DNA from: Eledone cirrhosa
Taxonomy: Eukaryota
Assembly (NCBI GenBank): GCA_964016885.1
Contig: OZ024741.1
Location: forward strand, 266,724,001-266,788,000
Reading direction: 5' to 3'
DNA: 64,000 nucleotides
The position numbers were made by a program, and so were the translations under genes. The notes under the pieces were generated by a model that saw only the letters and a list, made by a program, of their open reading frames with translations, had not been told where the DNA came from and ran no database searches. Below, in pieces: positions 1 through 58,764 of this stretch (positions are counted from its first letter, which is position 1; each line of letters begins with the position of its first letter).

Positions 1-137
1 AGAAATAGCCGTCGAAACGGCTTGAGCTCTGCCGTCGGGGTCATACATTTTCCTATTACCCACTCTACCACCCTAAGTATTGAGTACTCTGCTCTGATGC
101 GTTATGGTTCATCTGGTTCCTTACCACAACTCCTTCG

Positions 138-138
<1 letters not shown>
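1..138 (+). mobile_element. 3' part of a short PLE-associated repeat (family H1) with the 3' half of a putative hammerhead
   Basis: gtc-GAAAC-ggc-ttgagctct-gcc-GTC|ggggtcatac gives helix III plus a GUC site at 34-36. The same sequence recurs at 34243-34340 (-), 50600-50765 (-) and 51830-52004 (+). It ends ttcgt then (TA)n. The CUGANGA core would lie upstream of the window. Confidence 0.7.
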
Positions 139-30631: not shown

Positions 30632-30901
30632 TTGTATGTATGTATATAAGAAATTTTGAGAGAAAACTCATATATTCGAACTGTTCATAGAATACACGAA
30701 AAACATTTTTCTAAAATATTTAATATTTAATATTTGATAAGATTGTTATACCGATCGAAACCGGTTATATTTAATGCCACAATTATAAAATTGTTTATTC
30801 TGTCGGATTAAAGAAAAAATAATCTTCAAATATACTTCTGTGCATTTTCACCTTCACTTTTTAACTATATACACACACACACACACATATATGTGTGTGT
30901 G

Positions 30902-34175: not shown

Positions 34176-34242
34176 TATTACTGAGGACCTATTTAGTTTT
34201 TATAGAGAATATTGGAATATATATATATATATATATATATAT

Positions 34243-34340
34243 AACGAAGGAGTTGTGGTAAGGAACCAGATGGACCAAAACACACCAGAGTACTCAATAC
34301 TTAGGGTAGTAGAGTGGGTAATAGGAAAATGTATGACCCC
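34243..34340 (-). mobile_element. Family H1 3' segment starting at GGGGTCATAC
   Basis: Near-identical to 37-138 in reverse complement. Confidence 0.9.
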
Positions 34341-34394
34341 AAAAATATGGAACGCTTCACGAATTTGCGTGTCATTCTTGCGCAGGGGCCCTGC
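34341..34394 (-). pseudogene. U6: U6 snRNA 3'-half retrocopy
   Basis: Minus strand GCAgGGCCCCTGCGCAAGaATGACACGCAAATTCGTGAAGCGTTCCATATTTTT. This has two mismatches to the metazoan U6 3' half as I recall it. 5'-truncated. Confidence 0.95.
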
Positions 34395-34407
34395 ATATAT
34401 ATATATA

Positions 34408-34836
34408 TTTAATTGTAGAATTAAATCTAACTGTCCTTTAAATAATAACTGTTTAGTTAAAAATGTGGTTTACAAATGTAATGTTAAAACCAACGATAAT
34501 TCTTTCAATTATGTTGGCTCTACTTCTATTGACTCCAAATCTCGTTTCAACAACCATAAATGTTCGTTTAGGAATATTGGTAAAAAATCTTCAACTTCTC
34601 TATCCAACTTATTATGGAACTTAAAATCCAAGAATATAAACTATTCTTTATCTTGGAATATTGTTTCGAATGAACATGCCTACATAAACACCTCTTTATC
34701 CAAATTTTGCAACCTATGCGTTGAAGAAATATTCTTTATACTTAAATGTAAGAACTCCATTAATTTACGTAATAATTTATTTAGTTCTTGTAAACATCAA
34801 TTAAATTCAACTTTTAGATATATATATAAAATGTAA
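34408..34836 (+). pseudogene. Penelope-like GIY-YIG endonuclease fragment (5'-truncated)
   Basis: NC...NCPL...C....VVYKC.V......YVGST....KSRF..H..SF......TSLS..LW.LK......SW.I......Y......CNLC.EE...I......N.R......CKH. Same motif order as 2004-2498. Followed by a very AT-rich tail to 35862. Confidence 0.88.
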
Positions 34837-41440: not shown

Positions 41441-41909
41441 AAAGAAAAAGAGATGAAATCGAAAATGCAACTGGAGTCTTATTTTTTTTAAAAATATATA
41501 TATTTATTTGGTTCCTTTACCGGTTTTGCAGTTCTTCTGCTTTTCAAAAGGTGAGTTGAGATGGAGGGTCTGTGGTTTTTCTCAATATATATTTATATAT
41601 TAGTATAGTTGATATGAAGCATTATAAGATATGTAATATATGACTAAGTTCCAGAAAGCCGATACAATGGAGGTAGAAATATATAAAGGACAAAGGATAA
41701 CAAATAAAACAAAACAAAGTAATGTTTTACCCAGTATATTTCAACATGATATTTCAGGGCTAACACCCCTTTTTCAAATGTAAAAATGAAAACAGTTCAA
41801 AACAAAACGAACGGTCTATATGTTCTTCCCTATCTGGTCTAAGTGTCTAGACTTCGCATGCGTGGAGCAGTCATAGTAGCCACTCTACTCCGCGGAGTTT
41901 TAATTTACT

Positions 41910-50599: not shown

Positions 50600-50765
50600 A
50601 AGGAAGGAAGTGTGGTAAGGAACCAGGCGGACCATAACGCACCAGAGTACTCGATACTTAGGGTAGTAGGGTGGGTAATAGGAAAAGAGTCAGGACCCCG
50701 ACGGCTGAGCTCCGGCCGTTTCGACATCCGGCTTTCAGACCTAGCTGTCGAAACGGCCGGAGCTC
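50600..50765 (-). mobile_element. Family H1 copy with fold-back 5' end
   Basis: Minus strand: gagctccggccgtttc-gaca...tgtc-GAAACggccggagctcagccGTC|ggggtcc. Confidence 0.85.
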
Positions 50766-51829: not shown

Positions 51830-51833
<4 letters not shown>

Positions 51834-52004
51834 CGGCTGAACTCCGGCCGTTTCAACAGCTATGTCTGAACGCCGGATGTCGAAACGGCCGGAGTTCAGC
51901 CGTCGGGGTCCTGACTCTGTTCCTATTACCCACTCTACTACCCTAAGTATCGAGTACTCTGGTGCGTTATCGTCCGCCTGGTTCCTTACCACACTTCCTT
52001 CGTT
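51830..52004 (+). mobile_element. Family H1 copy with fold-back 5' end
   Basis: gacggctgaactccggccgtttc...tgtc-GAAACggccggagttcagccGTC|ggggtcc...cttcgt-(TA)n. Confidence 0.85.
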
Positions 52005-58079: not shown

Positions 58080-58140
58080 TATTCTATTATATATATTTCA
58101 AGGGTACCAAAACTTTGGTACGCTCTCATCAGATAAAATA
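58080..58140 (-). ncRNA. Type I hammerhead ribozyme
   Basis: tattttat CTGATGA gagc gtaccaaa-gt-tttggtac cctt GAAAT atat ATA atagaata. Confidence 0.82.
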
Positions 58141-58348: not shown

Positions 58349-58764
58349 AAGTAAGTAAGTATGTTTGTTTTGAAACAGTGAGCAAGTTTGAAATTAGAAA
58401 TTGAAGCTTTCACCGTATTTTTGACCTAAGAAATTTTAGCCTGATAGTGGAGTTTAGAACTCTCAGATGAATGGAAAAAGATGAGTATTGACGTACATGG
58501 GATTCGAACCCACATCTTTGGTTATCCAGACCACTGTGCTACCATTACACCAACACATCTCCTTCCATCCAGACCACTGTGCTACCATTACACCAACACA
58601 TCTCCTTCCATTCAAATTAGAAGCTACATCCTTAGCAAGTATAATGACAAGTAAGTAAGTTTGTTTTGAAACAGTGAGCAAGTTTGAAATTAGAAATAGA
58701 AGCTTTCACTGTATTTTTGACTAAAGAAATTTTAGCTTGATAATGGGGTTTAGAACCCTCAGAT
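58349..58764. repeat. About 118-bp direct repeats (58349-58468, 58649-58764) around a tRNA-like segment
   Basis: Minus strand 58487-58555 has the A box tggtgtaatggtag and the B box ggttcgaatccc. No clean acceptor stem. Confidence 0.75.

Follow-up and report, generated by a model that had tools for sequence, protein, structure and literature searches.

U6 snRNA retrocopies joined to Penelope-like elements at predicted hammerhead cleavage bonds in the genome of Eledone cirrhosa

In a 64,000-nucleotide stretch of the 3.0-Gb Eledone cirrhosa genome (hereafter, the window; contig OZ024741.1, positions 266,724,001–266,788,000), a U6 snRNA copy is fused to a dispersed repeat, here termed H1, at a position that an earlier note had read as the cleavage site of a hammerhead ribozyme, raising the question of whether the chimera records self-cleavage of the element's RNA and capture of a cellular RNA. 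The insertion (34217..34408, minus strand) consists of a (TA)7 target tract on its 5' side (34395..34408), a 5'-truncated U6 copy of 54 nt that ends in five T (34341..34394; approximately U6 nt 54–107), a 97-nt piece of H1 whose first base directly follows the predicted GUC cut (34244..34340), and a 27-nt (TA)n tract at the primed (3') end (34217..34243). The U6 copy differs from the U6 genes by two substitutions and is named as U6 by Rfam (52.3 bits compared to a gathering threshold of 44), and its five-T end is joined to GGGGTC of H1 (34340) without an extra base; the minus-strand sequence and the Rfam assignment thus agree with the direct fusion reported previously. The H1 piece stops at the usual internal end point of the family (CTTCGT, then TA), and with (TA)n on both sides a target-site duplication is unreadable. 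A second independent U6-GGGGTC locus, involving another H1 subfamily, occurs in the genome and eight more families have the same pattern, so the junction in the window is not a chance arrangement.

All three of the other H1 copies reported for the window are present, each with GAAAC, helix III, and GTC preceding GGGGTC. The copy at 1..138 (plus strand) carries the 3' half of helix II, GAAA, helix III, and GUC, with the cut predicted after base 36, while the copies at 50600..50765 (minus strand, partial inversion) and 51830..52004 (plus strand, 5' inversion) belong to another subfamily, with cuts predicted between 50700 and 50699 and between 51904 and 51905, respectively. The catalytic core that had been predicted directly upstream of window position 1 was not found there; the copy at 1..138 is one arm of an inverted duplication that extends left beyond the window (L031). 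Cut-site regions of intact hammerheads from three other families, H2, H4, and H7, lie at 41511-41526 (minus), 30757-30771 (plus), and 58081-58099 (minus). The window also holds a tandem satellite with a 95-nt unit (from 7298 onward) and a tRNA-like sequence (58489-58559, minus).

A search with the 138-nt copy as query gave 2522 first-look candidates, and a very rough copy number of ~26,000 was obtained from four exact anchors counted in 464 kb around the window. H1 copies share one internal end point followed by (TA)n, and 5' inversion is frequent, such that the family has the traits of a Penelope-like element: terminal repeats with a hammerhead, 5' inversions, a tail end, and (TA)n targets. 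Long copies run into a broken open reading frame in which YRDD, a CxC..CPLxxxC linker, and a VIY..YIG / GIY-YIG-like end were recognised by eye, and no significant match was returned for four H1 frames in Pfam or for the H1 protein in a PDB search. From this anatomy and the linker described in the available text of PMC8557442, H1 is placed among the Penelope-like elements and likely within the Neptune/Nematis type, as the linker precedes a C-terminal nuclease. Of the Penelope/retrozyme host proposed earlier, the Penelope-like part therefore stands and the retrozyme part falls, since H1 is an autonomous coding element with reverse transcriptase and GIY-YIG-like motifs. The other eight families are termed Penelope-like from their hammerhead type and, where visible, from (TA)n ends and inversions.

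The H1 hammerhead was read from thirty loci with upstream sequence, out of 659 matches, and in these long copies the order is ACCCC, core, long helix II, GAAA, helix III, GUC, and then GGGGU. This is the hammerhead expected from the earlier reading, with its cut at the junction and ACCCC as the helix I partner, though the core is UUGANAA (U3-A8) or CUGANAA (C3/A8) and not the anticipated CUGANGA. The C3/A8 core occurs in 22 of 43 retrieved H1 copies, and the H1 partner in the window belongs to a subfamily whose long copies (L082, L093) carry the U3-A8 core. In two of four long copies the unconstrained minimum-energy fold is a type I hammerhead with all three helices (-26.2 kcal/mol), and in the remaining two the constrained hammerhead lies within 1.5 and 4.6 kcal. 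On these folds, the junction with U6 coincides with the predicted scissile bond of a type I hammerhead. Counting covariation within H1 was abandoned, as most differences among its copies reflect decay.

Genome-wide, 112 exact U6 3' ends were found, or 212 when up to three mismatches over 29 nt were allowed. At least 29 U6 genes form a tandem array on C19 (G000:C19:31778863-31840329, L232) with a spacing of ~1.8 kb, and the three array genes that were read all end in seven T. Eighty-eight dispersed U6 insertions were read in listing order, with the two arms of an inversion merged. Visual sorting placed 18 of them at a hammerhead site and one probably so, 38 at SINE 5' ends, 19 inside other repeats, and four directly in (TA)n, with eight left unassigned. 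The earlier note held that independent U6 ends should be followed by sequence from directly behind the NUH triplets of different hammerhead families, and this is the pattern observed: wherever the U6 partner could be traced to an element with an intact hammerhead (18 insertions), the joint lies immediately behind the triplet, in nine unrelated families (H1, n = 2; H2, n = 3; H3, n = 4; H4, n = 1; H5, n = 3; H6, n = 1; H8, n = 1; H9, n = 2; H10, n = 1), and no U6 joined elsewhere in a traced hammerhead element occurs among the 88 insertions read. The triplets (GUC, GUA, GUU, CUU), helices, and sequences vary among the nine families. A loose cut-site descriptor matches 2.2e-4 times per base in 464 kb of genome. 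Worst case, the eight unassigned partners could hide off-site junctions, lowering the proportion to 18/27 with the probable case counted. In 15 of the 18 joints, A or C precedes the cut and microhomology is consequently absent, while in three (H4 and both H9) a T precedes the cut and the register is ambiguous.

Several assignments depended on related copies or were made in hindsight. The partner in L018 was assigned to H5 through related copies (the pattern search alone matched only L018 itself), and the probable 19th site joint, L024, has a 71% match to family H7, the pattern search again matching only the locus itself. The two H9 loci (L027, L160) were first scored as off-site because the descriptor limited helix III to 22 nt, and were reassigned after the joint had been seen; they were rejected as counterexamples, since a hammerhead fold of H9 puts the joint at its cut site. 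H10 provided a blind test, in which the family of the L022 partner was fetched after the prediction, and eight of nine other copies have CUGAAGA, GAAA, and GUA before the joint, with a helix I of 9 bp. Reading U6 ends thus pointed to two hammerheads, H9 and H10, that the first descriptor would have missed.

The families differ in how closely they follow a standard hammerhead. The core is canonical in H5, H8, and H10 and of the U3-A8 type in H2, H4, H6, H9, and part of H1, and the best copies of H5, H9, and H10 also fold as three-helix type I hammerheads. Helix II is present in H2, H3, H6, and H8, where helix III is a 2-bp palindrome that is not formed as a monomer, and helix I is only 2 bp in H6 and H8. 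In all H3 copies retrieved (L156, L074, L044, L090, L171) GCAA replaces the conserved GAAA, yet the family has four U6 captures. None of the Rfam hammerhead models matched among the best 150 of 170 hits (E<=10, 8 loci). The atypical cores (C3/A8 in H1, GCAA in H3) and the short helix I of H6 and H8 would weigh against a ribozyme reading, and together with the low activity that minimal Penelope hammerheads have in vitro, according to the available text of PMC4209133, they favour the idea that the cut site is a hot spot produced by a stalling structure or a protein nuclease, without ribozyme activity. Mammalian U6/L1 joints are attributed to nuclease breaks (PMC6789731, as far as its available text goes), and three insertions (L008, L016, L138) have one exact joint in common, with five T, inside a non-Penelope repeat, a recurrent 5'-OH site. 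Stalling, however, would spread ends across a few bases, and in nine families that differ in sequence, helix length, and triplet the joints all fall on the single bond given by hammerhead geometry, making a hot spot of this kind very improbable.

Equally, the eighteen joints could be descended from a few old chimeric master copies, or could reflect DNA rearrangement or an assembly artefact; three of the four H3 partners are similar in sequence, and the junction in the window is known from assembly sequence alone. This explanation is already largely refuted by the nine families, to which are added different subfamilies within H1, H2, H5, and H9, U6 lengths and flanks that vary, and a T run of five where the genes have seven, and its probability is close to nil. 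From the different subfamilies, U6 lengths, and flanks, at least nine independent events can be argued.

With 18 of 18 traced joints at the site in nine families, five T at 17 of these joints, and only ~1% of ordinary H1 copies starting at the same bond (a rough estimate), some RNAs of Penelope-like hammerhead elements very probably cleave themselves in germ cells, as read from this one genome. The uncut motif is present in most H1 copies, in agreement with uncut RNA being the main template in PMC11167929 (available text). Among H1 copies without U6, 238 breaks occur at the cut site compared to 66 at offset -5, a ratio somewhat overstated because the pattern for this single control offset demands exact matches at five additional bases, two CpG among them. 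Of 50 site breaks read in order, 26 lack sequence from upstream of the cut and 24 still carry some, the latter being deletions or slippage and not RNA ends, while 10 of 20 control breaks at offset -5 lack upstream sequence. The excess of breaks at the cut site appears to be real but modest.

Cleavage leaves two ways in which U6 could have been added. Under the first, the 5'-OH of the self-cleaved RNA is ligated to mature U6 by RtcB before reverse transcription; under the second, which was absent from the earlier note, cleavage is real but U6 is added at the DNA stage, when the reverse transcriptase jumps from the cut 5' end onto the U6 3' end. The position of the joint alone does not separate them, as ligation and a jump at an RNA 5' end predict the same bond. 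For U6/L1 chimeras, the competing explanation still under consideration is template switching (PMC11838501, available text), and the 38 U6 joints at SINE 5' ends, with variable T runs and some extra bases, make jumping onto U6 likely in this genome. Internal pieces of H1 are themselves joined to the cut site at two loci. In one (L326:2850-3900; G000:C2, near 113335800), an insertion is composed of two pieces, each starting at the cut site, the first of ~925 nt and the second of 97 nt, with seven unaligned bases between them and a fold-back at the first site; in the other (L327), a short internal piece is joined at the cut site. Either self-ligation or a template jump could account for these joints, though the seven unaligned bases suggest that the enzyme can jump. 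Four further U6 copies (L006, L157, L222, L229) run directly into (TA)n, one of them with an inversion; a Penelope-like enzyme likely acted on them in trans, and the element's enzyme therefore likely accepts a U6 template.

Against a jump, 17 of the 18 hammerhead-site joints have no extra base (L231 has one extra TA within the U6 tail), and the T run is nearly constant at five. Five T were found in 17 of 18 hammerhead-site joints and in 13 of 38 at SINE 5' ends (Fisher p=2.6e-5), a contrast that sets a Penelope-type against a SINE-moving reverse transcriptase, which are different enzymes and hence not a clean control. A second comparison is with H1 cDNA ends that lack U6 but fall on the cut site: of 69 such breaks read outside the window (50 in listing order and 19 chosen for unusual flanks), eight are fold-backs with 4–6 extra bases, such as are missing from the U6 joints. 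Extra bases are thus a frequent product of the enzyme at the H1 cut end when U6 is absent. Further, no traced joint involves another RNA end of these elements, and no other Rfam RNA was present in the 13 non-U6 site loci scanned. A template jump is, on this evidence, rather unlikely. The hammerhead-site joints have the form of U6 chimeric retrocopies of the RtcB type, with a complete U6 3' end, approximately five T, sense orientation, and no extra bases.

We presume on general grounds (cf. PMC13247085) that U6 in this animal carries a cyclic-phosphate end and that RtcB is present. Five U is the mature cyclic-phosphate form of U6 in human cells, and RtcB ligates U6>p to RNA with a 5'-OH (both in the available text of PMC6789731). 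In vitro, the ligase also closes retrozyme RNA with hammerhead-cut ends into circles (PMC7229834, likewise). With the near-constant five T, the lack of inserted bases, and both partial reactions of RtcB known in vitro, ligation of the element's 5'-OH to mature U6 by RtcB is probable. Ligation catalysed by the ribozyme itself was rejected, as the type I catalytic core belongs to the 5' product, which is absent here. Among the 80 cases listed (first 13 bases), no H1 5' product joined to the 3' product of another family was recognised, which counts against the ligation scheme.

The chimeras may be explained as follows. The type I hammerhead of each family places the NUH triplet directly before the junction, as is visible in the sequence. 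Some element transcripts would, very probably, cleave themselves in germ cells, and RtcB would then, with moderate probability, attach the 3' product to U6>p, a by-product of end-joining. From the anatomy of the copies and the available text of PMC11167929, the element's enzyme would nick a (TA)n tract and begin at an internal position of the RNA, 97 nt past the cut in the case of the window, and copying would cross the joint into U6 and then stop or fold back. More broadly, we lean slightly towards a reading in which Penelope hammerheads, atypical cores included, cut in the germ line and pass 5'-OH ends to RtcB, with the U6 chimeras as mis-ligations of a normal end-joining that yields the proposed circular intermediate, and U6 retrocopies as natural tags by which cut sites could be located to the base in any assembly.

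Each component of this scheme is known separately, in U6/L1 ligation, Penelope hammerheads, and retrozyme circles; in the mostly open-access literature searched, which included PMC4494074, PMC8782182, and 10.64898/2026.07.22.740005 in their available text, a joint between U6 and a ribozyme site was not found described. What is likely new, judging from the assembled sequence, are U6 chimeric retrocopies with a break point set by the element's own ribozyme. The following comparisons refer to the available text of each source. The U6/LINE-1 chimeras (Moldovan et al. 2019, PMC6789731) also have sense U6, approximately five T, and a clean joint to the retroelement, though there an unidentified nuclease is suggested as the possible source of the 5'-OH and the truncation of L1 varies, whereas here the partner is Penelope-like, each family is joined at a single fixed bond, and the element's own ribozyme would generate the 5'-OH. 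The Penelope pLTR hammerheads (Cervera and de la Pena 2014, PMC4209133) share the type I fold in a terminal repeat, the minimal palindromic helix III (as in H2, H3, H4, H6, and H8), and the U3-A8 variant, but differ from H1, H5, and H9, in which helix III is stable, and from H1 and H10, which have a long helix II insert; in that work in vivo evidence is stated to be absent, and cleavage and ligation are only proposed. Animal non-LTR retrozymes (Cervera and de la Pena 2020, PMC7229834) similarly have hammerhead-cut ends that are RtcB substrates in vitro, yet are short tandem non-coding repeats that circularise, while H1 is coding and the joint links two RNAs. The Anolis Poseidon element (Frangieh et al. 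2024, PMC11167929) resembles H1 in its internal start shortly behind the hammerhead, its AT-rich targets, and in most copies being derived from uncut RNA, and H1 differs from it by the CxC..CPLxxxC linker. For this lizard element cleavage was unnecessary in vitro and no RNA-seq read started at the cut site, which speaks against the proposed mechanism.

Cleavage by Penelope hammerheads in living cells has so far been inferred only from test-tube work, and eighteen heritable insertions at the predicted bond in nine families are likely a sequence record of in vivo self-cleavage, and in vivo activity becomes directly testable. If the joint is a ligation, it also indicates that RtcB has access to these ends, a requirement of the model in which Penelope tandem copies arise through a circular intermediate. 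The approach is cheap and portable: the U6 3' ends of an assembly are listed and the sequence that follows is read.

Three minor observations concern other U6 joints and the H1 cut site. A short repeat starting near AAGGGCGGTGCCCC is repeatedly joined to U6, with differing T runs and 0–7 extra bases (20 of 24 copies; including L001, L007, L009, L012, and L028-L030), and could represent either a site of repeated jumps or a SINE-like family headed by U6. At L159, the two arms of an inverted U6 insertion, with seven T and five T, lead into different sequences. Finally, in a full H1 hammerhead copy (L341; G000:C4, near 34269900), a purine run of 9 nt has been inserted precisely at the predicted cut.
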